Of a stretch of 32,000 nt of DNA, positions 1,894 to 26,770 are shown in pieces (position 1 is the first letter of the stretch; the number at the start of each line of letters is the position of its first letter). The notes beneath the pieces were generated by a model. It saw nothing but the letters and a program-made list of their open reading frames with translations, ran no database searches and was not told the DNA's origin. The translations under genes were made by a program, and so were the position numbers. Source of the stretch: Candidatus Saccharimonadota bacterium (GTDB lineage Bacteria > Patescibacteriota > Gracilibacteria > UBA4473); contig OY781871.1 in assembly GCA_963677105.1 (NCBI GenBank), forward strand, positions 540,001-572,000, read 5' to 3'.

Positions 1894-2424
1894 ATGCGAG
1901 ACTTTCCGCCGATAACGAAAGCGTTGCTTATTATAAATGTGATTATTTTCATCGCGAATCAGTTTGGAGCACTTCCATACACAGTTTCATTTCCAGGAAT
2001 TTATTCCATAGGAACTCTTTTGGCGCACTTTTCTCATGCATCATTGTTTCATTTGGGATCTAATATTATAGGGATTATCATTGTTTCTCCGATGCTTGAG
2101 CAAGACCTAAGAAAGAAGAAATATATTTTGCTTTTGCTCTTTTTGTGGCTTTCACAAGCGGCAGCTATTCCATTTTTAATAAATGCTCCGACATTAGGAT
2201 TCTCGGGGATTTTACTGGGATTGCTGACTTTTTTTGCAATACGGCTTTGGGTTCAAACGCGAAATATGTCGAATTTCACACTTGGAAGAGATTTATTATT
2301 TCTTGTAGGAATTAATGTTGCGCTGCCATTATTCGTTCCACAAATATCATTTATTGGACACGCGCTAGGAGCGTTACTAGGATTGATTGCTGCAACAGCG
2401 TCTCTCATTCCTTGCAGGAAATAA
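1894..2424 (+). CDS. rhomboid-family intramembrane serine protease (176 aa)
   Basis: Polytopic hydrophobic protein with HASLFHLGSN (H..xxH..N), the GFSGILLGL catalytic GxSG motif and the IGHALGALLGL catalytic His helix. Its ATG directly abuts the hisS stop (TAAATG at 1891-1896). Confidence 0.8.
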   Translation: MRDFPPITKALLIINVIIFIANQFGALPYTVSFPGIYSIGTLLAHFSHASLFHLGSNIIGIIIVSPMLEQDLRKKKYILLLLFLWLSQAAAIPFLINAPTLGFSGILLGLLTFFAIRLWVQTRNMSNFTLGRDLLFLVGINVALPLFVPQISFIGHALGALLGLIAATASLIPCRK

Positions 2425-2461
2425 TTTTGTGATTTCGGGAGTCATATATTACAGTTCGTCC

Positions 2462-3214
2462 ATGTTACCAATTTTAATTTCATTGCCACATTGCTCAGAT
2501 CATATTCCATATGATATTCGAGACTCTGTCGCGCTTTCTGATCTTGACTTAAAAAATCATTGTGATCTGTATACTTCGTGGATTTTTGACATTCCTGAAA
2601 CGTTTCAAGTAAAAGCGAGTTTTTCACGGCTCGTTTGTGATCCAAATCGTTCGGTAGATGATATTAAATTTCGCGACCAAAATGATTATGCGGAGTTCAT
2701 TTCCGACAGTATTCCGCTTCATTCTATCGACAAAAAACCAATTTATAAAAATGTTCTTACCGAGGAAGAAGTAGCACGACGAGTGAGAAAATATCATGCG
2801 TTGTATCACTGGCAGCTAGAAATGTATTTACCAATGGTGAAGTTTTTTATTGACGGACACTCTATGTACAATATTGCGCCAGATATTTATCGTAATGCTG
2901 GACAACAGCGACCAGATATTTGTCTTGGGACGCGTGATGGAACGACTTGTAAACCAGAACATGCAGAGTTTTTCAAAACATTTTTTGAAGCATGTGGATA
3001 TCACACAACTATTGATTCTCCTTTCAAGGGAAAATACATTATGGAGCGTTATTGCTCTTCAAATAGAGTTCCGGGGATTCAAGTAGAGTTTAATCAACGA
3101 TTCTACATTGACCCCGAAACACTCGAGCCAAAGTACGATAAAATTGAAGAACTAAATAAACAGATGACAAATTTAACGTTTGCTTTCTGTCAGAAATTTT
3201 TTCCAGAAGAGTGA
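2462..3214 (+). CDS. N-formylglutamate amidohydrolase (FGase, HutG-like) family protein, paralog 1 (250 aa from ATG 2462)
   Basis: Blocks align from memory to Pseudomonas HutG: LPILISLPH, FSRLVCDPNR, KYHALYH, FFIDGHSM, RPDICLGTRDGTTC, DSPFKGKYIMERY, PGIQVEFNQ. The ORF-track start at 2387 overlaps the rhomboid gene. Confidence 0.8.
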   Translation: MLPILISLPHCSDHIPYDIRDSVALSDLDLKNHCDLYTSWIFDIPETFQVKASFSRLVCDPNRSVDDIKFRDQNDYAEFISDSIPLHSIDKKPIYKNVLTEEEVARRVRKYHALYHWQLEMYLPMVKFFIDGHSMYNIAPDIYRNAGQQRPDICLGTRDGTTCKPEHAEFFKTFFEACGYHTTIDSPFKGKYIMERYCSSNRVPGIQVEFNQRFYIDPETLEPKYDKIEELNKQMTNLTFAFCQKFFPEE

Positions 3215-3925
3215 GATTGCGCGTTCTATTTTTTGAGAGACAGCGGTAAGTTGTTCGCCATTTATATTTTCAGCATTCGTAGAAAAAAGTCCGCGTCGAA
3301 CTTCGATTTGAACACCAGGAAGTGTTTTTTTGGAACAAAAATGTGTGAGTAAATGTCCGCCAAGAAAAGGATCATCTATTTGGACAGAAAACCCAAGAGA
3401 CTGAAATATTTCAGAAAACAAGAAGGCAGTTTTTTTATTGCACGTTCGAAAATTATTCGTGGAAAGGACAATGTCTGGTCGTTTACTTTTTGGATCAACT
3501 TCTTCATCCAGCGAAAGGTCTTCCATCGTATGTCCAGCGATAAAAAATTGAATATTTTCGTTTTTAATTATTTGCAAGCACCTTGCATAAAATTCTTTGT
3601 GCTCTTTTTCTCGAGATATTTTTTCAGAATCAGTTAGCGGAGTCATATATATTTCTTTGCCGTATTCTGTTTTTTGGCGAACAATTCCAGCTCGCTTAAA
3701 ATTTTTAGAAAGAGTCCAATCGTTACTTGCTCGATTCAAATCACAAAATAATCGAGAATATTTTGCTGACAAGATGTGAAATTTATCATGCGTGAAAATT
3801 TCTTTACTTCCATAATCCCAATAATACTTTTGTATTTGCTCAGTAGAAAGAGTTAATTGTTCTCGTGTAGCGATTGGCAGACAAGTTTCTCCATGAGGAA
3901 GGGCAATTAAAATGGGAAGCTTCAT
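3173..3925 (-). CDS. N-formylglutamate amidohydrolase (FGase) family protein, paralog 2 (250 aa)
   Basis: Same family blocks: LPILIALPHG, YSRLFCDLNR, FFIAGHTM, RPDIVLSTNNFRTC, DDPFLGGHLLTHF, PGVQIEVRR. Its start overlaps the ATP-grasp stop (ATGA at 3922-3925). Its 3' end overlaps paralog 1 by 42 nt. Confidence 0.8.
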   Translation of the reverse strand: MKLPILIALPHGETCLPIATREQLTLSTEQIQKYYWDYGSKEIFTHDKFHILSAKYSRLFCDLNRASNDWTLSKNFKRAGIVRQKTEYGKEIYMTPLTDSEKISREKEHKEFYARCLQIIKNENIQFFIAGHTMEDLSLDEEVDPKSKRPDIVLSTNNFRTCNKKTAFLFSEIFQSLGFSVQIDDPFLGGHLLTHFCSKKTLPGVQIEVRRGLFSTNAENINGEQLTAVSQKIERAISLFWKKFLTESKR

Positions 3926-5187
3926 TCTTGAAGTCTTATTGAATTACGGATTTCATGCAAAAGTTTTGTCGCATTGTTGAGTGTTTGTTGAAATTCTTTT
4001 CCATACACAAGAAACTTCATAATGAATTTTCCTCCACGAGAAGCTGGTCCGACCATTTCTCCGTTTTTTCGGTTAAGAGTTATATTTTTAATATCATCGC
4101 GATTTTTCAAACATGAAAAATCAATGGAATCGAGTTTCCCTATATTTGGTGAAAATATTTCGACTACCGCCGTATAAACAGGATATTTTTCTGGCAGAGA
4201 AATAGTATCTCCGAGTGCGACCTGAATACATATTTCATTGAGATCGAAGTTTCTTTGAGTTGCGACATCGAACATTTCTCCACGAAATCCTCCTGAACGT
4301 GCTGCGACTTCTACAACAGAACATTCATTTGTTTCTCGCTTAAAAAACACCTCAGTATGACTTCCACAAAAATTCGTTCCTAGCGCATCGAGCGCTTTTT
4401 TCACGGTATTATAAATAATAGATTCCTGTTCAGGAGTGTAGTCGGCAGGCAGAATTCTGATTGGTAAATGATGATCAGAAATTCCTATTTCTTCGGAAGT
4501 TACATATCTACAAATCGGAGTAAAATGATGTTTCCCGTTTACTGTCAGTGCATCGATTGATAATTCTTCTCCAACTAAAAGTTCTTCTAAAAGAAAATGA
4601 GTACGTGGATCAGGAGTAGTAGGAATTTTTTCATGATTAAATAATTGATCATGAAGAGTCGCCATTTCGTTTTGAATTTCTTCTTGAAAGACTCGCAATG
4701 TTTGAGCGAGATCTTCTCGTGATTTCACTTTTGCGACAAACCGGGAATGAACTCCAGAAAGTTGTTTTAAGATCAATGGAAATTTGTGACAGGTCAAAAA
4801 TTCTTCTGCCTTTTCCATACTATCAATTAAAACAAAATCAGCAGCTGGGACTTTCTGTTCCGCAAAAACTTGTTTCATCAAGAACTTATTTCGAAAGTTT
4901 ACAGATTTTTCAAGGGAAATTCCGGGAAGTTTTTTTGCTTCAGCAATTGCTGCCGTGGGAACAATGAAGTCTTCAAAACGTGTTAGGACGGCATCAAATT
5001 CAGACTTCGCTAAAACAGAACGCACCTCTTCCCAATCGAAAATATCATTTACTTTCCATATTTTTGAAAATGAATTTTCATATTCCAACTTAAATTCTCC
5101 TTTATTTATTAATAAAAAGTTTTCGTTATTTTTTGATAAATGTGTTGATTTACCGCGATATCCTACAAATAAAATTCTTTTTTTCAT
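3922..5187 (-). CDS. ATP-grasp domain carboxylate-amine/L-amino-acid-ligase-like enzyme (421 aa from ATG 5187)
   Basis: ATP-grasp layout: NKFLMKQVFAEQKVP, FPLILKQLSGVHSRFVAKVKSREDL, FLLEELLVGEELSIDAL, GSHTEVFF...CSVVEVAARSGG. The ORF-track start at 5205 is a TTG. ATG 5187 (MKKRILFVG) lies 8 nt below an extended -10. Confidence 0.75.
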   Translation of the reverse strand: MKKRILFVGYRGKSTHLSKNNENFLLINKGEFKLEYENSFSKIWKVNDIFDWEEVRSVLAKSEFDAVLTRFEDFIVPTAAIAEAKKLPGISLEKSVNFRNKFLMKQVFAEQKVPAADFVLIDSMEKAEEFLTCHKFPLILKQLSGVHSRFVAKVKSREDLAQTLRVFQEEIQNEMATLHDQLFNHEKIPTTPDPRTHFLLEELLVGEELSIDALTVNGKHHFTPICRYVTSEEIGISDHHLPIRILPADYTPEQESIIYNTVKKALDALGTNFCGSHTEVFFKRETNECSVVEVAARSGGFRGEMFDVATQRNFDLNEICIQVALGDTISLPEKYPVYTAVVEIFSPNIGKLDSIDFSCLKNRDDIKNITLNRKNGEMVGPASRGGKFIMKFLVYGKEFQQTLNNATKLLHEIRNSIRLQE

Positions 5188-5195
5188 CACGCAGT

Positions 5196-5204
5196 ATCTT
5201 AGCA
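5196..5204 (-). promoter_or_regulatory. extended -10 element of the ATP-grasp/FGase operon
   Basis: Minus strand TGcTAAGAT (5204-5196), 8 nt upstream of ATG 5187. No convincing -35. Confidence 0.3.
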
Positions 5205-5373
5205 AAAATAATGAAGAAGTGGGAGTGATTTTTCGTTTTCCAGTGTCACTTGACGGAAATTATTTTTTATTATAAAAAGGGCTTGTATTTTCGTTTATAG
5301 ATTTTAGATAAAATACTTATAACGAATACTCTTTGATAGAACGAGTTAATTTAAGAAAAATAAGGAGGCTGGA

Positions 5374-11038: not shown

Positions 11039-11114
11039 TGGAGCCGCCTTCGAGAATCGAACTCGAGATCTCGTCCTTACCAAGGACGCGCTCTAGCCAC
11101 TGAGCCAAGGCGGC
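11039..11114 (-). tRNA. tRNA-Thr (anticodon GGU), 76 nt, CCA encoded
   Basis: The reverse complement GCCGCCTTGGCTCAGTGGCTAGAGCGCGTCCTTGGTAAGGACGAGATCTCGAGTTCGATTCTCGAAGGCGGCTCCA folds as a cloverleaf. Acceptor GCCGCCT/AGGCGGC, D stem GCTC/GAGC, anticodon stem CGTCC/GGACG with loop TTGGTAA, T arm TCGAG-TTCGATT-CTCGA. Confidence 0.9.
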
Positions 11115-12674: not shown

Positions 12675-14024
12675 ATGGCAAAAAACAATCAACAATGGCT
12701 GTGTACGGAATGTGGAGAAGTTTTTGGTAAATGGAGTGGACAGTGTTCCTCCTGTCAGGAATGGAACACCATTAAAGAGTTTCGCGAATCAAAGATTCCC
12801 AATGGGAAAACGGATTTATCGAAAGGGAAAGACTTAAGCAAATTACAAACTTCAAATATACAAAGTGCAAATAAGGAGAGAGTATCTTCTGGGATTGAAG
12901 AAGTGGATCGTGTTTTGGGAGGAGGATTTTTTCCGGGAACACTTGCTTTGTTTGGTGGATCTCCTGGGATTGGAAAATCTACATTGGCGCTTCAAATTTT
13001 TATGAAAACAAAAGAGGCGCTTTATTTTTCTGGAGAAGAGTCAGTAGAACAGGTAAAGAATCGAGCAACGAGATTAAACCCAAAGGAGATTTTGGGATCA
13101 ATTTTCTCTACTAGTTCACTTGAAGATATTTGCCAAACAATTGCAAAAATTAATCCTGAGCTTGCTATAATTGATTCTATTCAAATGGTTGGGACGGAAA
13201 ATTCTTCGTTTGGACAGCTATCTCAAATAAAAGAAAATGCAGAAATTTTGCTTAAATTAGCGAAGTCAACAGGAACGACAATTTTGGTTATTGGTCATGT
13301 GACAAAAGCGGACGAAATTGCAGGACCCAAAGTTCTCGAACACATCGTTGACGTTGTTTTACGATTGAACGGAGAAGGAAATAGTGAGGTTCGAGTTTTG
13401 AGTTCTCCGAAAAACCGATTTGGAAGCACATTAGAAATTGGTGTGTTTGAAATGCGTGGAAATGGACTCGTGGAGCTAGCAAATCCTTCGGAATTTTTCT
13501 TGGCAGAACGAGCAGAAAATGCTTCTGGTTCAGCAATTGCGGTTGTTCGTGAAGGTTCTCGGAATTTTTTATTAGAAATTCAAGCGCTTATGGTTCGTAC
13601 AAATTTTGGACAACCGCGACGAACAAGTCATGGAATCCCTTTAAATAAATTTCACTTGCTTCTTGCGGTGGTGAGTAAGTTTACGCCATTTAAATGTGGA
13701 GAATATGACGCATACATAAGTGTTGTTGGCGGAATGAAAATACATGAACCGGCTGCTGATTTAGCGATTTGTGCAGCAATATTGAGTTCTCGTGCGGAAA
13801 AGGAAATTCCAGCAGATACAGTAATTTTAGGAGAAGTTGGATTGAGCGGAGAAGTTCGGAGTATCGCACAGATGGAAACAAGATTAATTGAAGCTTCTAA
13901 ATTAGGTTTCAAAAAAGCAATCATTCCCTGTACTCGAGGGAAAATAAAATTGCCAAAAGAGATGACCGTTACAGAGGTACGAAGTGTTTTAGAGTTAGTG
14001 AAAGCGGTATTTAAAAACGATTAA
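12675..14024 (+). CDS. radA: DNA repair/recombination protein RadA (Sms), 449 aa from ATG 12675
   Basis: N-terminal C4 zinc finger CTECGEVFGKWSGQCSSCQEW. RecA-like Walker A GGSPGIGKSTL. The RadA-specific KNRFG motif. C-terminal Lon-protease-like domain (ISVVGGMKIHEPAADLAICAAILSS). Confidence 0.9.
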   Translation: MAKNNQQWLCTECGEVFGKWSGQCSSCQEWNTIKEFRESKIPNGKTDLSKGKDLSKLQTSNIQSANKERVSSGIEEVDRVLGGGFFPGTLALFGGSPGIGKSTLALQIFMKTKEALYFSGEESVEQVKNRATRLNPKEILGSIFSTSSLEDICQTIAKINPELAIIDSIQMVGTENSSFGQLSQIKENAEILLKLAKSTGTTILVIGHVTKADEIAGPKVLEHIVDVVLRLNGEGNSEVRVLSSPKNRFGSTLEIGVFEMRGNGLVELANPSEFFLAERAENASGSAIAVVREGSRNFLLEIQALMVRTNFGQPRRTSHGIPLNKFHLLLAVVSKFTPFKCGEYDAYISVVGGMKIHEPAADLAICAAILSSRAEKEIPADTVILGEVGLSGEVRSIAQMETRLIEASKLGFKKAIIPCTRGKIKLPKEMTVTEVRSVLELVKAVFKND

Positions 14025-14397
14025 ACTTGTCTCGTTTTCGTTTATCTTTTTTACTTTCACGACCATCTCCATATCGAAACTTAACTTTTCGATCATCTCG
14101 TTTTTGTGCGGATTCTATTTTTTTATGTTCTATTGCAATCGTTTCAAACTTAGGACTCAAGTTCTCAAAATATCCGTCTGCCATTTCCTCTTTCCCTCTC
14201 TTTTCTAAATATTTGAGAACTTTATATCTTTTCACTCCAGCTGGAAATTCAACAGAAACTTCATCTCCAATTTTAACCAATTTTGATGGTTTTACCTTAT
14301 TTCCATTTATAGAAACACGTCCAGATCTACAAAATTCTCCTGCTTGTGTACGAGATTTGACCATCCAAGTCGTCCAAATCCATTTATCAACGCGCAT
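14011..14397 (-). CDS. hslR: S4-domain RNA-binding protein, Hsp15-like (128 aa)
   Basis: MRVDKWIWTTWMVKSRTQAGEFCRSGRVSINGNKVKPSKLVKIGDEV is the Hsp15/S4 alpha-L motif (R-x-DKWLW...R..A...G.V.vNG...KPS). Basic C-terminal tail. Its ATG lies 1 nt after the valS stop. Its 3' end overlaps radA by 14 nt. Confidence 0.8.
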   Translation of the reverse strand: MRVDKWIWTTWMVKSRTQAGEFCRSGRVSINGNKVKPSKLVKIGDEVSVEFPAGVKRYKVLKYLEKRGKEEMADGYFENLSPKFETIAIEHKKIESAQKRDDRKVKFRYGDGRESKKDKRKRDKFNRF

Positions 14398-14398
14398 T

Positions 14399-17300
14399 TT
14401 AAAGACTCGTTAACTCCTTTTGTAATGTATCTAATTTGGTCTCAGCATCAGTGAGTTGTTGTTTCGTTTGGTTCACTAAATGCTCAGGAGCTTTATCGAT
14501 ATATGACTTATTAGTTAAACGTCCCTTCAGTCCACTAATTGATTTCTCGAGAGAAGCGATTTCAGCTTCTAAGCGTTTCTTTTCTGCCGTTGCATCAAAA
14601 GGAACTTCCACGAAAATCTCCATTCCGTTGATCAGTACCATTGCTGAACGTTCCGGCTTGGACGCCTTTTCTGTAATTTCAACATCGGACAGATTCGCCA
14701 ACACCTTCATCACCTCAACTGTTTTGTCCAAAGAATCCGCATTCTTACCTGCTGAAATTTTAACTGAAATCTTATCCTTCGGATTCAATTTCTTCTCCGC
14801 TCGAACCTTTCGGATTTCTGTCACAATTTCTTGCATGAGTGTAAAAATTCTTTTTGATTCAGTGTCTTTAAATTTTAAATCGGGGAAATTTTGTTCGATT
14901 AAAAATGAATTTTTTGGGTTTAATTCACTCCATAAGTTTTCTGTAATAAATGGAACAAGTGGATGTGCTAATTTTAGAATTTCCAGAAATACGCTATATA
15001 AAAATTTTGGATTTCTATCTATCTTTTGAGTCTCCAAAAACCAACTACAAAATTCATCCCACACGAAATGATAGATCTCATCTCCAGCGGAAGAAATTTC
15101 ATATTTTTCTAGTTTTTGCGAAACACTTGTAGAAACTTCGGAAAATCTATGTAGAAGCCATTTTTCTGAAAGAGAAGTAGGATTCTTTAATATTTTTTCA
15201 ACATCAAATTCAGAATCAACGTCTTCCAATTGCATTTGTACAAATCTTCCGGCATTCCACATTTTATTTACAAAGTTTCGGTATCCAGACACTTTCGCTT
15301 TTCCAAGTGGAATTGGATTTCCAGGAGTTGCTCCGATTACAAGAGAAAGACGAACAGCGTCCGCTCCCACTTCTTCAATTATTTCGAGCGGATCAATTCC
15401 ATTTCCTTTCGATTTCGACATTTTTTGTCCATTTTCATCACACACCAATCCATGCAAATACACCGTATGAAATGGATATTTTCCTGTTGCATATCGTCCG
15501 AACATAATCATTCGAGCCACCCAAAAGAAGATAATATCATGTCCCGTTTCGAGCACATCTGTTGGATAAAATTTCTCAAAATCAGGCGTTTTGTCAGGCC
15601 AACCAAGCGTTGAAAATGGCCACAATGCAGAGCTAAACCATGTATCGAGAGTATCTTTGTCTTGTTGTAAACCTTCTCCAACAGGATCAGCTAAAACCGT
15701 TAATGCACGAATTTCCCCCTTTTCCCATTTCCACTCAGAACGGAATCGCACAAATTTTTCTTCATCTTCACTTCGGCTAAAATGAAACAAGGCAGCGGTG
15801 AAATTTTTGTGTCCAATCACGAGAACATCGTCTTCTTTTTTTAATCGTTCAATTACGTTTTGAGCTCGCCGAGAAATATCAATTAAGTCCTCGTCTTCTG
15901 TTTTATCAAATTGAATTTCAAAAGGGCCTTCGCGATGCAAATTTGCTTTTCCAGCTAACTCTGAACTCGTGAATTCTGCCAACTCTGGCCACACCTCTAC
16001 AGGAACATTTAATTCGGCAGCAACGATTTCAGCGGTTTGATGTCCGCGTTTTAAATTAGAACAAATTATTTTCTTAATCCCTTTCTTTCGAATATTTTCA
16101 GCTATTTTGCGAGCATCTTGCAAACCATTATCCGTAAGAGGATAATCTCCCCCAAGAATTTTTTTTGCGTTCGCTTCACTTTCCCCGTGTCGAGCAAAGA
16201 GAATATTTTTTTCCACGGGCAGATGAATATTTTCATTTTTATCGTACCAAACGGGGATTCTGTGTCCCCACCAAATTTGTCGTGAAATACACCAATCTCT
16301 TAGATTATCAATCCATTGAAAATAGACCTTTTCAAAGCGCTGCGGAATAATTTTTATATGATTTTCACGAACCGCTTCTTGCATCTGTTTTTTGAGCGTT
16401 GTTTTTTTTCCTGTAAATTCGTCGATGAATTCTTTTTCCACAGAAATAAACCACTGAGGAGAAAGCATTGGTTCTACGATTGTTCCAGAACGATAGCATT
16501 TTGGAACACGATTTGGATGTGGTCGTTTTTCAAACAATAATCCCTTTTCTTCCAACAATTCTCCAGCTCGTTTTCGGGCTTCTTGAACAGGCATTCCGGC
16601 ACACGGTCCTGCAATATCGGTCATCGTTCCAGCAAAATCAATTTTCTGGATAAGTGGTAAATCTCGACGTTGTGCTAATTCAAAATCATCTGGAGAATGA
16701 GAAGCGGAAATAGTCATTGCTCCTGTTCCAAACGCTGGATCAATAATTTCATCAGCAATTACCCAAAATTTTCGCGGTCCCGCATATGTTTCTGCTGTGA
16801 ATTCTTGTCCGACAAGAGCTTCTCCAGGAACAACTTCTTGGATATTAAAATCTTTTCGTAATTCTGTGTGTGCGTCGTAGTATTTTTTTGTTACAATACA
16901 CTCTTTTCCTGTTGCATTTATAGCGCGTACATATTCAGCAGTTGGATGTACTACTACAGGAGAATCTGCACATTTTGTTTCAGTTCGAACAGTTCCAATT
17001 AAAAATGGACCACACCAAAACTCATAAAAATCTGCTATATTGTCGTCCCATTCTACTTCGTCATCAGCAAGTACAGATTGTGCGCCAACGGACCAATTTA
17101 TCATTCGATGACCACGAACAATAAGTCCGTCTTCATAGAGTTTTTTAAATACCCAATTTACCGCAAAGTTTCTTTCAGAATCAAATGTATAGGCTTCTCG
17201 AGACCAATCGAGATGTGCGCCCATTTTTTTTATTTGATGAGTAATTCGATCATGTTTTTCTCCTGCAAATTTTCTACATTCAGATAAAAAATCTTCTCGA

Positions 17301-17608
17301 TCCATTTCTTCTCGCGTCTTCAATCCCAAATGTTTTAATACGACATTTTCGGTTGCAATTGCTGCATGGTCTGTTCCTGGTAACCAAAGCGTTTCGTGTC
17401 CCGTCATTTTTTTATAACGGATCAAAATATCTTCTACAGCTAGCATTGCAGCGTGACCAAGATGTAATTGCCCAGTTACATTCGGTGGAGGAAGAGGAAT
17501 TGTGTACGGCTTTTTGTTGGAAGAAACATCAGCGGTCATCACATCTGTTTTTTCCCATTTTGCATAAATTGCATCTTCTGAGCCGTTATGATCATAATTT
17601 TTTTGCAT
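14399..17608 (-). CDS. valS: valine--tRNA ligase carrying an internal histidine-phosphatase domain (1069 aa from ATG 17608)
   Basis: ValRS blocks: PNVTGQLHLGH (HIGH), TVRTET (TTRPET-like, CP1), FGTGAMTISASHSPDDF, WCISRQIWWGHRIPVWY, DTLDTWFSSALWPFSTLGWP, KMSKS, and a C-terminal coiled coil. With the start at ATG 17608, MQKNYDHNGSEDAIYAKWEK aligns residue-for-residue with the E. coli ValRS N-terminus as I remember it. The track start at 17623 is a GTG. Confidence 0.9.
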   Translation of the reverse strand: MQKNYDHNGSEDAIYAKWEKTDVMTADVSSNKKPYTIPLPPPNVTGQLHLGHAAMLAVEDILIRYKKMTGHETLWLPGTDHAAIATENVVLKHLGLKTREEMDREDFLSECRKFAGEKHDRITHQIKKMGAHLDWSREAYTFDSERNFAVNWVFKKLYEDGLIVRGHRMINWSVGAQSVLADDEVEWDDNIADFYEFWCGPFLIGTVRTETKCADSPVVVHPTAEYVRAINATGKECIVTKKYYDAHTELRKDFNIQEVVPGEALVGQEFTAETYAGPRKFWVIADEIIDPAFGTGAMTISASHSPDDFELAQRRDLPLIQKIDFAGTMTDIAGPCAGMPVQEARKRAGELLEEKGLLFEKRPHPNRVPKCYRSGTIVEPMLSPQWFISVEKEFIDEFTGKKTTLKKQMQEAVRENHIKIIPQRFEKVYFQWIDNLRDWCISRQIWWGHRIPVWYDKNENIHLPVEKNILFARHGESEANAKKILGGDYPLTDNGLQDARKIAENIRKKGIKKIICSNLKRGHQTAEIVAAELNVPVEVWPELAEFTSSELAGKANLHREGPFEIQFDKTEDEDLIDISRRAQNVIERLKKEDDVLVIGHKNFTAALFHFSRSEDEEKFVRFRSEWKWEKGEIRALTVLADPVGEGLQQDKDTLDTWFSSALWPFSTLGWPDKTPDFEKFYPTDVLETGHDIIFFWVARMIMFGRYATGKYPFHTVYLHGLVCDENGQKMSKSKGNGIDPLEIIEEVGADAVRLSLVIGATPGNPIPLGKAKVSGYRNFVNKMWNAGRFVQMQLEDVDSEFDVEKILKNPTSLSEKWLLHRFSEVSTSVSQKLEKYEISSAGDEIYHFVWDEFCSWFLETQKIDRNPKFLYSVFLEILKLAHPLVPFITENLWSELNPKNSFLIEQNFPDLKFKDTESKRIFTLMQEIVTEIRKVRAEKKLNPKDKISVKISAGKNADSLDKTVEVMKVLANLSDVEITEKASKPERSAMVLINGMEIFVEVPFDATAEKKRLEAEIASLEKSISGLKGRLTNKSYIDKAPEHLVNQTKQQLTDAETKLDTLQKELTSL
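15671..16204 (-). other. in-frame insertion of about 178 aa encoding a histidine-phosphatase (PGAM-branch) domain within valS
   Basis: ILFARHGESEAN (RHG motif), LTDNGLQDARKIA, IICSNLKRGHQTAEIV, PELAEFTSSELAGK, DVLVIGHKNFTAALF. Flanked by WWGHRIPVWYDKNENIHLPVEKN and LQQDKDTLDTWFSS. Confidence 0.7.
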
Positions 17609-17634
17609 TTCAGCGTGGTACACAAATCACGCAA

Positions 17635-23738: not shown

Positions 23739-23813
23739 TCCCGAGTAGCTCAGGGGTAGAGCAGTTGGCTGTTAACCAACTTGTCGTCGGTTCAAATCCG
23801 ACCTCGGGAGCCA
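23739..23813 (+). tRNA. tRNA-Asn (anticodon GUU), 75 nt, CCA encoded
   Basis: TCCCGAGTAGCTCAGGGGTAGAGCAGTTGGCTGTTAACCAACTTGTCGTCGGTTCAAATCCGACCTCGGGAGCCA folds as a cloverleaf. Acceptor TCCCGAG/CTCGGGA, D stem GCTC/GAGC, anticodon stem GTTGG/CCAAC with loop CTGTTAA, T arm GTCGG-TTCAAAT-CCGAC. Confidence 0.9.
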
Positions 23814-24227: not shown

Positions 24228-26741
24228 TCACTCAGATTTCTTTTTTGTTTCGACGCGCTTCTTTCCCATTGAAGGTTTCTCTTTTTCTTCGTTTTTCTCT
24301 TTGGTATCTTTCTTTCGTTTATCATTTTCTGGACGTGTCCAGCGAGTTATTTTTTCTTCTACAACAGATCGCGGTTTTGCATATCGTTGGCGAGAAAAAT
24401 TTCGAATCTTTTTCATGCGTTCTTCCGGAGATTCGTCGCACTTAATTTTTGGTGGAGGAAGAGTATCTCCAGAGAAAACTTCACTCGTTACTCCATCGAC
24501 CATGATGCGATTATATACTTTATATTTTGGAAGACTTGCTAGGTTTACAGGTAAAACGCGATCTTCATCAAACTGTTCGGATAATATTTTTGCGTCATCA
24601 ATCCCCACTTGAAAAGAAATTAATGATCCGACATTTCCAAATACAGCAGCACAAACTTCTTCTGACATCTGCGCAATATACTGATTTGCCATTGTAAGAT
24701 TGAGCTTATATTTACGTGCTTCGGACAAAATTGTCGCAAAAGAATCAGTGGCAAAGTTTTGGAACTCATCCACATAAAGATAAAAATCTTTTCGTTGTTC
24801 TATTGGAATATCAGCACGACTCATCGCATCAAGTTGGAATTTTGTAATCAAAAGAGATCCAAGCATTGCAGAATTATCTTCTCCGAGTTTTCCCTTTGAA
24901 AGATTCACAATTATTATTTTTCCAGAATCCATTGCAAAACGAATGTCGAGAGTGGATTTTGGTTGACCAACAATATTTCGGATCACTGGCGTAGAGAGGA
25001 ATTGCCCAACCTTATTTTGTATTGGACCAACAGCTTCTGCTAATTTTTGTGGAGCGAGAGCACTAAATTCAGTTTCCCAGAAACTTCGGACCATTGGGTC
25101 TTCTACATAATGCAGAATCTTTTGGCGATAACTTTTATCAACCAGCATTCTTGTGATTCCTAACATCGTAGTATCGGGAGCTTCCACGAGTGCCAAAACA
25201 GTATTTCGTAAAAAGTGCTCTAATCGTGGTCCCCAAGAATCAATATTTAATTTTTTAATCACACCGATGAGTCCAGACGCAACAAGACCTCGTTGTTCTG
25301 GATTTTTTCCTTCCAATAAATTAAAAGCGAGTGGAAACTCTCGATCCGCCGGATCAAAAAGAATCACATCATTCGTTCGATGTTTGGGAACAAATTGCAT
25401 AACGGCTTCAGCCAAGTCTCCATGAGGATCAATTACAGCGACACCTTTCCCAGCTTCAATATCTGAAAAAATCATATTTTCCATAATGGTCGATTTTCCC
25501 ATTCCTGTTTTCCCAATCACATATACATGACGACGACGATCATCTGGACGAATTCCGTATTCGTCCCGTTGTAATCGGAAATTTGTTTTTCCAATAAGAG
25601 TAATGTCAGCCTCTCCTCTTCCCGGTAAATTTGCTGGTGGTTCAAGTTTTGGGGCATTTACCCATTGAATTCGTGCCGTAGAGACGCTTATCGTTGGCAA
25701 ATGGAACATGGTAGCCAATTCTTCTTGAGACAAGATAAATGGAGAATCAAGACGTCTTGCGACGATATTACGAAAAGTATGAGAATCTTTCCCCTTTTGA
25801 AGGGTTCGTATGTCAAAGTAGTTCAATTGTGGTTGTGAAAATTGTTGGAAGGTTCCAGCGATTTCTCGAAGTTTTGCTTCAGCGTGTAACGCATCTTCAT
25901 CATCGTGGATATATGCAGCACGAATATTTACACAGAATGCCTGGCGTGAAACTTTATCATAAGAAGCTCCATATACAGTTTCTCGATCGTGTCTTCCCGA
26001 AGAAGTTCGTTCGTCTACTTCTCCTTCGGTTTCTTCTGAATTATCGCGAGAAACTATGGAAGAGTGTGGGCGATTTTTTCCCCAAAGGAAAAATAAGTGA
26101 ATAAGAAAGAATAATGGGCTGCGCAATATGCGAGTAGATTTATTTGGTGAAATTCGAAGCCATTGATATAATTTTCGGAACCATTTCCATTGCCATACTC
26201 CGGTACGGAAAAAACGTTTGAGCGTTTTTTCAGCGACTTCATTCCATTTTTTATCAACCGGGGCAATAACCCATTGTAATACAGCCGTATCAGTTCGTGA
26301 ATGAAGACTTGAGATAGCAGAAGTGATTGCACCAAGAGGATCTTCAAATGTTCGAGCAGAGGTATCTTCGAATTGTGCGTAACGTTTAAATGGGAAAACC
26401 CATGGTTCACTAGGTTCTAATGATGTTGAGATAACTTTTTTATTTGCAATTAATTTGTTTGTGAAAAAATTACAAACAGTTTCTATCTCAACCGAAGGAT
26501 ATTGTGCAAAAATTTGAGAAGAAATAAGCGTTCGTAAATGTGCTGGAACGGAGACATAAAAATGTATCATTCCACACATGTTCACAATTTCAAAACTTAT
26601 CGTTTCTTGTTCGTTATTTTTCATAGATCGCAAAATCAATCCATGTAAACTTGCCAGGATTTGCTCAAACGCAACTGGTCCTTTTTCGTTTAATTTAGGG
26701 ACGGAGAGGCGAAGCACAGTGCGAGAATTCTTTTTCTTCAT
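24228..26741 (-). CDS. VirD4/TraD-like (AAA_10 / type IV coupling-protein-like) P-loop NTPase with a large uncharacterised N-terminal domain (837 aa from ATG 26741)
   Basis: Walker A HVYVIGKTGMGKST, then AVIDPHGDLAE. Walker B FYLYVDEFQNF. SEARKYKLNLTMANQ. The N-terminal region of about 400 aa has no motif I recognise apart from a hydrophobic stretch (LFFLIHLFFLW). Lys-rich C-terminal tail. The track start at 26747 is a GTG. Confidence 0.75.
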   Translation of the reverse strand: MKKKNSRTVLRLSVPKLNEKGPVAFEQILASLHGLILRSMKNNEQETISFEIVNMCGMIHFYVSVPAHLRTLISSQIFAQYPSVEIETVCNFFTNKLIANKKVISTSLEPSEPWVFPFKRYAQFEDTSARTFEDPLGAITSAISSLHSRTDTAVLQWVIAPVDKKWNEVAEKTLKRFFRTGVWQWKWFRKLYQWLRISPNKSTRILRSPLFFLIHLFFLWGKNRPHSSIVSRDNSEETEGEVDERTSSGRHDRETVYGASYDKVSRQAFCVNIRAAYIHDDEDALHAEAKLREIAGTFQQFSQPQLNYFDIRTLQKGKDSHTFRNIVARRLDSPFILSQEELATMFHLPTISVSTARIQWVNAPKLEPPANLPGRGEADITLIGKTNFRLQRDEYGIRPDDRRRHVYVIGKTGMGKSTIMENMIFSDIEAGKGVAVIDPHGDLAEAVMQFVPKHRTNDVILFDPADREFPLAFNLLEGKNPEQRGLVASGLIGVIKKLNIDSWGPRLEHFLRNTVLALVEAPDTTMLGITRMLVDKSYRQKILHYVEDPMVRSFWETEFSALAPQKLAEAVGPIQNKVGQFLSTPVIRNIVGQPKSTLDIRFAMDSGKIIIVNLSKGKLGEDNSAMLGSLLITKFQLDAMSRADIPIEQRKDFYLYVDEFQNFATDSFATILSEARKYKLNLTMANQYIAQMSEEVCAAVFGNVGSLISFQVGIDDAKILSEQFDEDRVLPVNLASLPKYKVYNRIMVDGVTSEVFSGDTLPPPKIKCDESPEERMKKIRNFSRQRYAKPRSVVEEKITRWTRPENDKRKKDTKEKNEEKEKPSMGKKRVETKKKSE

Positions 26742-26770
26742 ATTCACGGAAAATTGTACGTATTTTTAGG

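Follow-up and report, generated by a model that had tools for sequence, protein, structure and literature searches.

Introduction

Can a second, unrelated enzyme be lodged within the catalytic core of an aminoacyl-tRNA synthetase, and what might it do there? The question is raised by a stretch of 32,000 nucleotides (the window; contig OY781871.1, positions 540,001 to 572,000, assembly GCA_963677105.1) from a Candidatus Saccharimonadota bacterium of the Patescibacteria. Its valS gene encodes a predicted valyl-tRNA synthetase (ValRS) whose core is interrupted, in frame, by what a preliminary description of the window had taken to be a complete histidine phosphatase (HP). Aminoacyl-tRNA synthetases are among the best-studied enzymes, and their bacterial architecture is regarded as nearly fixed; the translation apparatus of Patescibacteria is otherwise known mainly for its losses. 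The analysis presented here shows that a phosphatase subfamily of about 180 residues has been joined repeatedly to ValRS and to isoleucyl-tRNA synthetase (IleRS) in Patescibacteria, where it occupies several loops and its copy number ranges from one to four.

A Phosphatase in the CP3 Slot of a Complete Synthetase

The valS gene is, as first described, a single uninterrupted open reading frame (ORF) on the minus strand, encoding 1069 residues from its ATG codon (Table 1); an alternative GTG start at 17623 would give an ORF of 1074 residues (14399..17623, minus). The product read from the ATG is 100% identical to database protein P0121, encoded on a 962-kb contig. Pfam splits the tRNA-synt_1 match into two stretches with His_Phos_1 in between, followed by Anticodon_1 (PF08264, E 1e-32) and the ValRS C-terminal arm (Val_tRNA-synt_C, PF10458, E 2e-13). 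Despite the insert, the protein passes the NCBIfam valS equivalogs PRK05729 (NF004349; 897.9 bits, cut-off 704) and TIGR00422 (801.7 bits, cut-off 612.1). The blocks that the preliminary description had quoted as flanking the insert, WCISRQIWWGHRIPVWY and its partner, are both found in the ORF, as are HIGH, KMSKS, and the CP1 editing motifs, and the ValRS columns T206, R208, E210, T211, D286, G294, H304, and D308 are invariant in 88 homologues. An AlphaFold2 (AF2) model of the full-length protein has a predicted local distance difference test score (pLDDT) of 89.4 and a predicted template-modelling (TM) score of 0.82; its best match in the PDB is Thermus thermophilus ValRS, 1GAX, with a TM score of 0.82 normalised to the target. 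By its motifs, equivalog scores, and 1GAX-like model, the window protein is a complete valyl-tRNA synthetase, otherwise undisturbed around the insert.

The envelope of the HP cassette, residues 464–648, was set with a hidden Markov model (HMM) built on 57 homologous inserts. The range given earlier, 15671-16204, lies inside it and translates exactly to ILFARHGESEAN...ADPVGEG, residues 469–646 in the numbering from the ATG; the junction sequences are ...HLPVEKNILF and ...ADPVGEGLQQDKDT. The match to PF00300 (His_Phos_1) is strong, with an E value of 8.9e-26 and 91.2 bits against a gathering cut-off of 21.7 (residues 474–618 in GTG numbering). When PDB sequences were searched with the insert, it aligned with the domain of rat fructose-2,6-bisphosphatase in 1FBT (E 1e-11): Arg473 and His474 pair with the RHG motif, Asn480 with the Asn, Arg521 with the Arg in MKRTIQTAE, Glu545 with the Glu in NEIDAG, and His600 with the His in VICHQAV. 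These motifs of 1FBT we take to be the catalytic positions of F26BPase, and the catalytic set of the window copy appears intact, in agreement with the earlier reading.

The AF2 model of the insert alone has a pLDDT of 88.3, and Foldseek matches it with probability 1.0 and TM scores of 0.62–0.71 to solved histidine phosphatases (HFP, F26BPase, dPGM, CobC, and PhoE), no subfamily being preferred. The domain is real, and both models predict that it folds as a confident unit with the HP fold. Residues 550–575 may form a substrate-specificity cap. Every curated subfamily model scores far below its cut-off: the dPGM models NF038349 (dPGM_arch, 65.2 versus 225) and TIGR01258 (30.6 versus 81.7), the CobC models TIGR03162 (61.7 versus 162.9) and NF011580 (57.6 versus 250), the SixA model TIGR00249 (35.2 versus 74.5), and those for GpmB and PspA. 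By its profile scores, therefore, the insert is a member of branch 1 of the histidine phosphatase superfamily that belongs to no characterised subfamily, and it carries a C-terminal strand element specific to its own, YR..W..EN.E..L. PADLOC gave no match for the window insert or for a free-standing homologue, and a PHROGs search with the same two returned only the unannotated phrog_12933.

The position of the insert is well defined. The spacing from WCISRQ to DTLDTW is 35–55 residues in insert-free ValRS relatives versus 213 in the window, and alignment with insert-free homologues shows that HP replaces the tip of a short hairpin between ...GHRIPVWYD and ...L.QD.DTLDTW. The element that usually lies between the WCISRQ..VWY and QDxDTLDTW blocks is a hairpin of about 14 residues or a four-cysteine zinc knuckle; in some relatives (P0196, P0155, and P0233) a CxxC...CxxC knuckle sits exactly at the HP position. 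In IleRS this hairpin element is the CP3 subdomain, of variable structure and zinc-binding in the Thermus enzyme (PMC7191050), and the assignment of the HP slot to CP3 is based on that work. In human IARS1, CP3 forms a protein–protein interface (PMC13439101). CP3 is a peripheral, variable subdomain (PMC7191050; PMC13439101), and the peripheral element in the second half of the catalytic core to which the preliminary description had assigned the in-frame insertion is, by alignment, CP3.

An intein was considered and rejected: the window ValRS has no Pfam match to a Hint domain or an endonuclease, and its junctions lack the splice residues (an N-terminal Cys or Ser; a C-terminal His-Asn followed by Cys, Ser, or Thr). 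Because these intein features are missing, HP presumably stays in the mature protein.

Table 1. Positions of valS, its parts, and its motifs in the window, and of three contigs in which a free-standing HP gene lies between tsaD and valS
Feature	Position	Strand	Basis or remark
valS	14399..17608	minus	Single uninterrupted ORF, 1069 aa from ATG, stop codon included
ValRS N-terminal part, aa 1-463	16220..17608	minus	Rossmann first half with HIGH, CP1 editing domain, CP2, WCISRQ; Pfam tRNA-synt_1, first stretch
HIGH motif LHLGH, aa 48-52	17453-17467	minus	In ValRS N-terminal part
CP1 editing motif GTVRTET	16976-16996	minus	In ValRS N-terminal part
CP1 editing motif GTGAMTISASHSPDD	16685-16729	minus	In ValRS N-terminal part
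WCISRQ block	16277-16294	minus	In ValRS N-terminal part
HP cassette, aa 464-648 (185 aa)	15665..16219	minus	PF00300 and HMM envelope; fills CP3 slot
RHG motif: Arg473, His474 (predicted phospho-acceptor), Gly475	16184..16192	minus	1FBT alignment
Asn480	16169-16171	minus	1FBT alignment
Arg521, second phosphate-pocket Arg, in CSNLKRGHQTAE	16046..16048	minus	1FBT alignment
Glu545 in PELAEF, predicted proton donor	15974..15976	minus	Aligned to 1FBT NEIDAG
Short flexible cap region of HP, aa 550-575	15884..15961	minus	In both AF2 models, the one part of the insert with low confidence
His600 in VLVIGHKN, second catalytic His	15809..15811	minus	Aligned to 1FBT VICHQAV
ValRS C-terminal part, aa 649-1069	14399..15664	minus	Rossmann second half, anticodon-binding domain, C-terminal coiled-coil arm; Pfam tRNA-synt_1, second stretch
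DTLDTW	15638-15655	minus	In ValRS C-terminal part
KMSKS, aa 729-733	15410-15424	minus	In ValRS C-terminal part
tsaD-HP-valS, contig L093	925-5415		
tsaD-HP-valS, contig L095 (L095/L096)	2971-5074		
tsaD-HP-valS, contig L101	1547-3650		

Occurrence, Copy Number, and Sites in Patescibacteria

The reading frame is continuous through the insert, GC content and GC skew are unbroken across the junctions, and no flanking repeats were found there. To establish how far the architecture extends, one genome per GTDB species was scanned with a degenerate DNA pattern, WCISRQ-(26-36 codons)-[FL]xRHG[EQ]. The scan matched 88 loci, 85 in frame with an HP domain and three out of frame. HP-bearing ValRS are thereby found in 85 GTDB species genomes across Patescibacteria (the Candidate Phyla Radiation, CPR), namely in Gracilibacteria, Peribacteria, Peregrinibacteria, and Altimarinota, and a slightly longer spacer adds Moranii-, Kaiser-, Falkow-, Sungii-, Colwell-, and Nomurabacteria together with other Paceibacteria. 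The nearest species representative to the window, a metagenome-assembled genome of Candidatus Peribacteria (L078), has a ValRS 86.7% identical to that of the window, and at least one intact HP copy is present in 72 of the 120 closest ValRS, at identities down to 42%. The orthologues carry the same phosphatase and no unrelated insertion, which supports the preliminary reading of the motifs.

The window comes from a metagenome-type assembly, and one might suspect a chimera or a frameshifted fusion of two genes. This idea is effectively refuted: ValRS sequence lies on either side of the insert in one unbroken ORF, the identical protein is encoded on the 962-kb contig, the same junction, with a 26-residue spacer from WCISRQ to [FL]xRHG, recurs in dozens of independent assemblies, and the pattern scan finds it in 85 independent species genomes. 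An HP domain in ValRS is not peculiar to the window genome; it is widespread in CPR ValRS and in IleRS.

Relatives of the window protein carry one to four HP copies at three ValRS sites (A, B, and C). At the CP3 site (site A) tandem copies occur, two in each of eight proteins and three in one; P0241 has four copies by Pfam, three of them confirmed by the insert HMM. A second site precedes WCISRQ by about 35 residues and holds HP in seven ValRS, four of which also have a CP3 copy, and a third, after DTLDTWFSS...STLCWP, is occupied in one ValRS fragment. A search of 1.84 billion representative proteins with the insert profile gave 336 matches at E<=1e-30; among the best 150, every multi-domain host that could be classified by Pfam or motif is a ValRS or a type-2 IleRS, the latter defined by PF00133, PF08264, and PF19302. 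Type-2 IleRS of the same lineages contain one to three HP domains (P0246–P0248, P0252–P0254, P0265, P0288, P0312, P0316, P0385–P0502; L144) at sites A, C, and D: the homologous CP3 slot, the loop after DCWFESGSMPYA, and a position just before the anticodon-binding domain. Among the 120 closest IleRS relatives, about 76 list PF00300, and these belong to Peribacteraceae, Peregrinibacteria, Gracilibacteria, Altimarinota, and other Patescibacteria, and one JGI annotation reads 'isoleucyl-tRNA synthetase/bisphosphoglycerate-dependent phosphoglycerate mutase'.

Other variations accompany the phosphatase in these synthetases. HP-bearing ValRS ORFs of the Paceibacteria type (L005, L009, L021, L046, L049, L053, L056, L073, and L076) encode about 910–930 residues, and many such proteins are about 150 residues shorter after the insert than the window protein, which suggests that the C-terminal arm has been lost wholly or in part. 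A second recurrent in-frame module of ValRS, here called domain X, spans about 210 residues, is inserted at the same two sites, and as a rule neighbours an HP copy (P0183, residues ~480–695; P0217, 700–916; P0230, 705–917; P0186, ~400–640; P0197, 728–945; P0204, 633–870). Its motifs are F[IL]SEFxYAKxRGW ... FYLLP ... VSxFF ... SSRQT, and it has no match in Pfam, PADLOC, PHROGs, or, by sequence, the PDB. In the related ValRS P0179, a nuclease-like DUF559 domain (PF04480) lies inside CP1 at residues 262–372, and P0130 has an HU-type PF00216 match in its precomputed annotation.

Exchange of the Cassette and Selection on It

The arrays do not stem from recent tandem duplication. Copies within one protein are only 27–39% identical and are nearer to copies in other proteins, and duplication was rejected as their source on these grounds. 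Two old paralogous HP types occur at the CP3 site: the window protein has only the alpha type, P0132 and P0143 only the beta type, and P0122, whose core is 89% identical to that of the window protein, holds both. When ValRS cores are placed on a neighbour-joining tree, proteins with and without HP are interspersed, and many sister pairs differ.

The most direct view of an exchange comes from a single ENA sample, ERZ25074195, in which two contigs (L170 and L171) encode ValRS proteins, P0181 and P0196, that are 97.4% identical. The two flanks are 97.3% (upstream) and 98.3% (downstream) identical in DNA; between them, 584 nucleotides encoding HP (L170 5386-5969) stand where the other contig has 71 nucleotides encoding a CxxC..CxxC zinc knuckle (L171 5386-5456). 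The breakpoints of this clean swap fall exactly at the DNA coding for GHRIP and for KNLKQDEDT. HP therefore behaves as an exchangeable cassette that recombination within the conserved flanking motifs adds or removes, and it is dispensable in the short term.

Where the cassette is present, its pocket is conserved. All 69 first HP copies at site A have the RHG Arg, the nucleophile His, and the second Arg; the second His is retained in 59 (Asn in the other 10) and the Glu in 49 (Ala, Ser, or Gly otherwise). Non-redundant copies of the Gracilibacteria type keep the RHG Arg in 115 of 116 cases and the His in all 116, and 32 of 32 copies of the Paceibacteria type keep all five catalytic residues. 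The same is true of every complete IleRS copy (21 of 23; the remaining two end before the RHG motif). Between the window and L078, the nonsynonymous divergence (dN) is 0.097 for the insert and 0.093 for the rest of the gene. These comparisons point to purifying selection on HP as strong as that on the synthetase core, and they bear out the earlier statement that the insert is not a decayed relic.

Free-Standing Relatives

Free-standing proteins of about 180 residues correspond to the insert over its full architecture, down to the characteristic C-terminal strand, and by similarity the free-standing and embedded copies are interleaved. In three contigs of one Paceibacteria-like lineage (Table 1), a free-standing HP gene of 180 codons lies between tsaD and valS; it overlaps the tsaD stop codon by 4 nucleotides and lies about 90 nucleotides upstream of a valS that has no insert. 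A metagenome scan with the free-standing proteins returned mostly distant, unrelated histidine phosphatases; only L101 repeats the tsaD-HP-valS order, and L144 is an IleRS host. Support from gene neighbourhoods is real but limited to one lineage.

Three consecutive histidine-phosphatase genes were also seen on another contig (L092 2464-5151; 212, 428, and 253 residues, the middle one with two domains), 1.7 kb from a small tRNA_bind (PF01588) gene.

What the Phosphatase May Do

The reading favoured here, to which we give an even chance of being right, is that HP is an accessory phosphomonoesterase tethered to class Ia synthetases and acting on a nucleotide- or tRNA-linked phosphate that they handle. 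HP would hydrolyse phosphomonoesters by way of a phospho-His474 intermediate, and aminoacylation by ValRS would proceed independently of it. The benefit would come from physical tethering to the class Ia Val and Ile synthetases, and the substrate would most likely be, though this is a guess, a phosphate on a nucleotide or on the tRNA acceptor end handled by ValRS and IleRS. Since HP occurs at several loops and in arrays, tethering rather than a fixed geometry seems to matter, and channelling aimed precisely from HP to the synthetase site is unlikely. Of the geometry envisaged in the preliminary description, then, the peripheral site stands, and the idea of an active site directed precisely at that of the synthetase is weakened.

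Several observations weigh against an accessory phosphomonoesterase that serves the synthetase. Copies lie at several different loops, even beside the anticodon-binding domain of IleRS, which speaks against mechanisms that need a fixed geometry toward the aminoacylation site. Most of the free-standing homologues examined are not adjacent to valS, and two insert-free ValRS of the window's own clade (P0154 and P0160) have no HP neighbour. The nearest structures and sequences of the insert assign no substrate, the neighbours being generic across the superfamily. HP domains carry a mild negative net charge (mean -3; window copy -5) and so are not generic RNA binders. In the Gracilibacteria type, about 25% of copies are without the Glu and about 10% have Asn in place of the second His, and decayed remnants without RHG persist in P0234, P0238, and P0239; from these losses it follows that the module is dispensable, and in some lineages it is perhaps not catalytic. 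Finally, the synonymous divergence (dS) between the window and L078 is saturated at ~2.2–2.4, so that the dN/dS ratio (omega) of ~0.04 for both insert and core is only approximate.

It is possible, though on balance improbable, that HP is an ordinary metabolic phosphatase (of sugar-phosphate, riboflavin, cobamide, or phosphoserine type) that very small genomes have fused into essential genes with high, constitutive expression merely for co-expression or stability, with no functional tie to translation. The nearest curated families are indeed small-molecule enzymes (archaeal dPGM, CobC, GpmB, and PspA), the nearest structures are the riboflavin-pathway HFP 9MMH, F26BPase, and dPGM, many free-standing relatives with one or two domains occur outside any synthetase context, and the apparent unimportance of insertion geometry would be expected. 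Yet the curated scores fall far short (dPGM 65 versus 225; CobC 62 versus 163), the classified multi-domain hosts among the best 150 profile matches are all ValRS or IleRS, the tsaD-HP-valS synteny suggests tRNA-related partners, and strain-level polymorphism for presence is not expected of a core metabolic enzyme. A non-catalytic module, in which the HP fold would sense phosphate or a phospho-ligand and thereby regulate the synthetase, or would offer a dimerisation or scaffolding surface in place of the CP3 zinc knuckle, seems distinctly unlikely. The losses of Glu and of the second His, with the phosphate-binding Arg/His/Arg triad kept, are what such a role would allow; CP3 is a protein–protein interface in human IARS1 (PMC13439101); and the tandem and free double-domain forms bring to mind dimers of the kind that we take to be typical of dPGM-like enzymes. 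Against it stand the full catalytic set in the window copy, in all Paceibacteria-type copies, and in every complete IleRS copy, and the invariance of the nucleophile His, which binding alone does not require; moreover, no partner or ligand is known.

About as doubtful is a horizontally exchanged immunity or repair module, which would clear the tRNA 3' end of a blocking phosphate or pyrophosphate, left for example by tRNA-end-modifying or tRNA-cleaving toxins, or would dephosphorylate some other product of a translation-directed toxin. Proofreading by ValRS and IleRS needs a free 3'-OH on A76. A module of this kind would jointly explain the selection on the pocket, the patchy strain-level distribution, the multi-copy arrays, and the restriction to Val and Ile synthetases. 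The same patchiness, with its many differing sister pairs, could also reflect a selfish or neutral cassette that recombines in frame into conserved motifs of essential genes and persists since imprecise deletion would be lethal to the gene. The clean swap seen in two strains of one sample, whose breakpoints lie in conserved DNA, the variable sites and copy numbers, the decayed remnants, and the presence of other modules in the same genes (DUF559 and domain X) all fit that idea. It is nevertheless very improbable: the protein sequence of the insert changes at the same slow pace as the core and keeps its catalytic residues across large evolutionary distances, so that selection on the phosphatase itself is needed; there is no nuclease, Hint domain, intein signature, terminal repeat, or compositional anomaly; and no part in DNA mobility is known for the HP fold.

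Other Features of the Window

Directly downstream of valS, a gene of 128 codons (14011-14397, minus) encodes an S4-domain protein that is Hsp15/RqcP-like by its domain; because it starts 1 nucleotide after the valS stop codon, the two genes are probably co-transcribed. A T-box leader upstream of valS was considered and rejected, the gap being only about 55–70 nucleotides, depending on the start codon, and Rfam giving no match there. An alternative genetic code was likewise rejected; TGA is the stop codon of six of the 20 window ORFs. ARAGORN predicts tRNA-Thr(GGT) at 11039-11114 (minus) and tRNA-Asn(GTT) at 23739-23813 (plus), of which Rfam at its gathering threshold finds only tRNA-Asn.

Farther from valS, two convergent, overlapping genes of the N-formylglutamate-amidohydrolase family (2387-3214, plus; 3173-3925, minus) adjoin an ATP-grasp gene (3922-5205, minus). 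An 839-residue homologue of VirD4/TraG-like coupling proteins, with TrwB_AAD_bind, T4SS-DNA_transf, and TraG-D_C matches, is encoded at 24228-26747 (minus), and a 315-residue ORF without a Pfam match comes after it.

Significance and Comparison with Known Systems

The locus presents a second, unrelated enzyme, catalytically intact as judged from its sequence, that is nested in the core of ValRS, occurs also in IleRS, and is exchanged like an accessory gene. Full-text literature searches turned up no description of a histidine phosphatase within ValRS or IleRS, in keeping with the statement in the preliminary description that no synthetase with an embedded phosphatase was known. Many HP-bearing synthetases are present in the databases, labelled generically, for instance as 'class I tRNA ligase family protein'. 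If HP acts on tRNA ends, on adenylate-derived nucleotides, or on the product of a translation-directed toxin, it would constitute a new layer of quality control or defence placed directly on the synthetase; otherwise, it is a striking natural domain insertion tolerated by an essential enzyme. In either case CP3 emerges as an evolvable slot that may be usable for engineering, and the HP-bearing synthetases offer a concrete handle on the biology of Patescibacteria.

With branch 1 of the HP superfamily (PF00300, including dPGM, F26BPase, CobC, PhoE, and SixA) the insert shares profile, fold, RHG motif, second Arg, Glu, and second His, and at about 180 residues it resembles the smallest members in size (about 190 for the F26BPase domain, 161 for SixA). 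Unlike those subfamilies, it is nested in another enzyme, fails all curated cut-offs, and has a C-terminal strand element of its own. The zinc-knuckle CP3 of Thermus-type IleRS and ValRS occupies the same structural slot (PMC7191050), but it is a structural mini-domain of about 25 residues that lacks a catalytic pocket. Inteins and other in-frame mobile insertions have in common with HP a site by the most conserved motifs of an essential gene, a patchy distribution, and polymorphism between close strains; HP differs from inteins in having no Hint domain, homing endonuclease, or splice residues, and it appears to be under selection for its phosphatase pocket.

The architecture is that of a synthetase with a nested accessory enzyme, and its closest analogues are found among enzymes that have acquired a second activity. 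The CP1 editing domain of ValRS, IleRS, and LeuRS is likewise a second hydrolytic domain set in the Rossmann-fold core that leaves the synthetase functional; it is, however, universal and ancient and hydrolyses mis-acylated tRNA esters, whereas HP is lineage-restricted, sits in the CP3 slot in variable copy number, and appears built for phosphomonoesters. The exception family ileS_w_GNAT (NF040702) is also a bacterial class Ia synthetase with an unrelated extra enzyme domain, in that case a GNAT acetyltransferase, and the window protein is not a member (193.6 bits versus a cut-off of 1999). The bifunctional RNase H/acid phosphatase NF005567, presumably the RNase HI–CobC protein Rv2228c of Mycobacterium tuberculosis, likewise joins a branch-1 HP to a nucleic-acid-processing enzyme. 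The insert matches its HP half (E 2.5e-11) and scores 43.6 against a cut-off of 326; there the fusion is end to end and with a different partner, and in the synthetases of Patescibacteria the phosphatase is nested.

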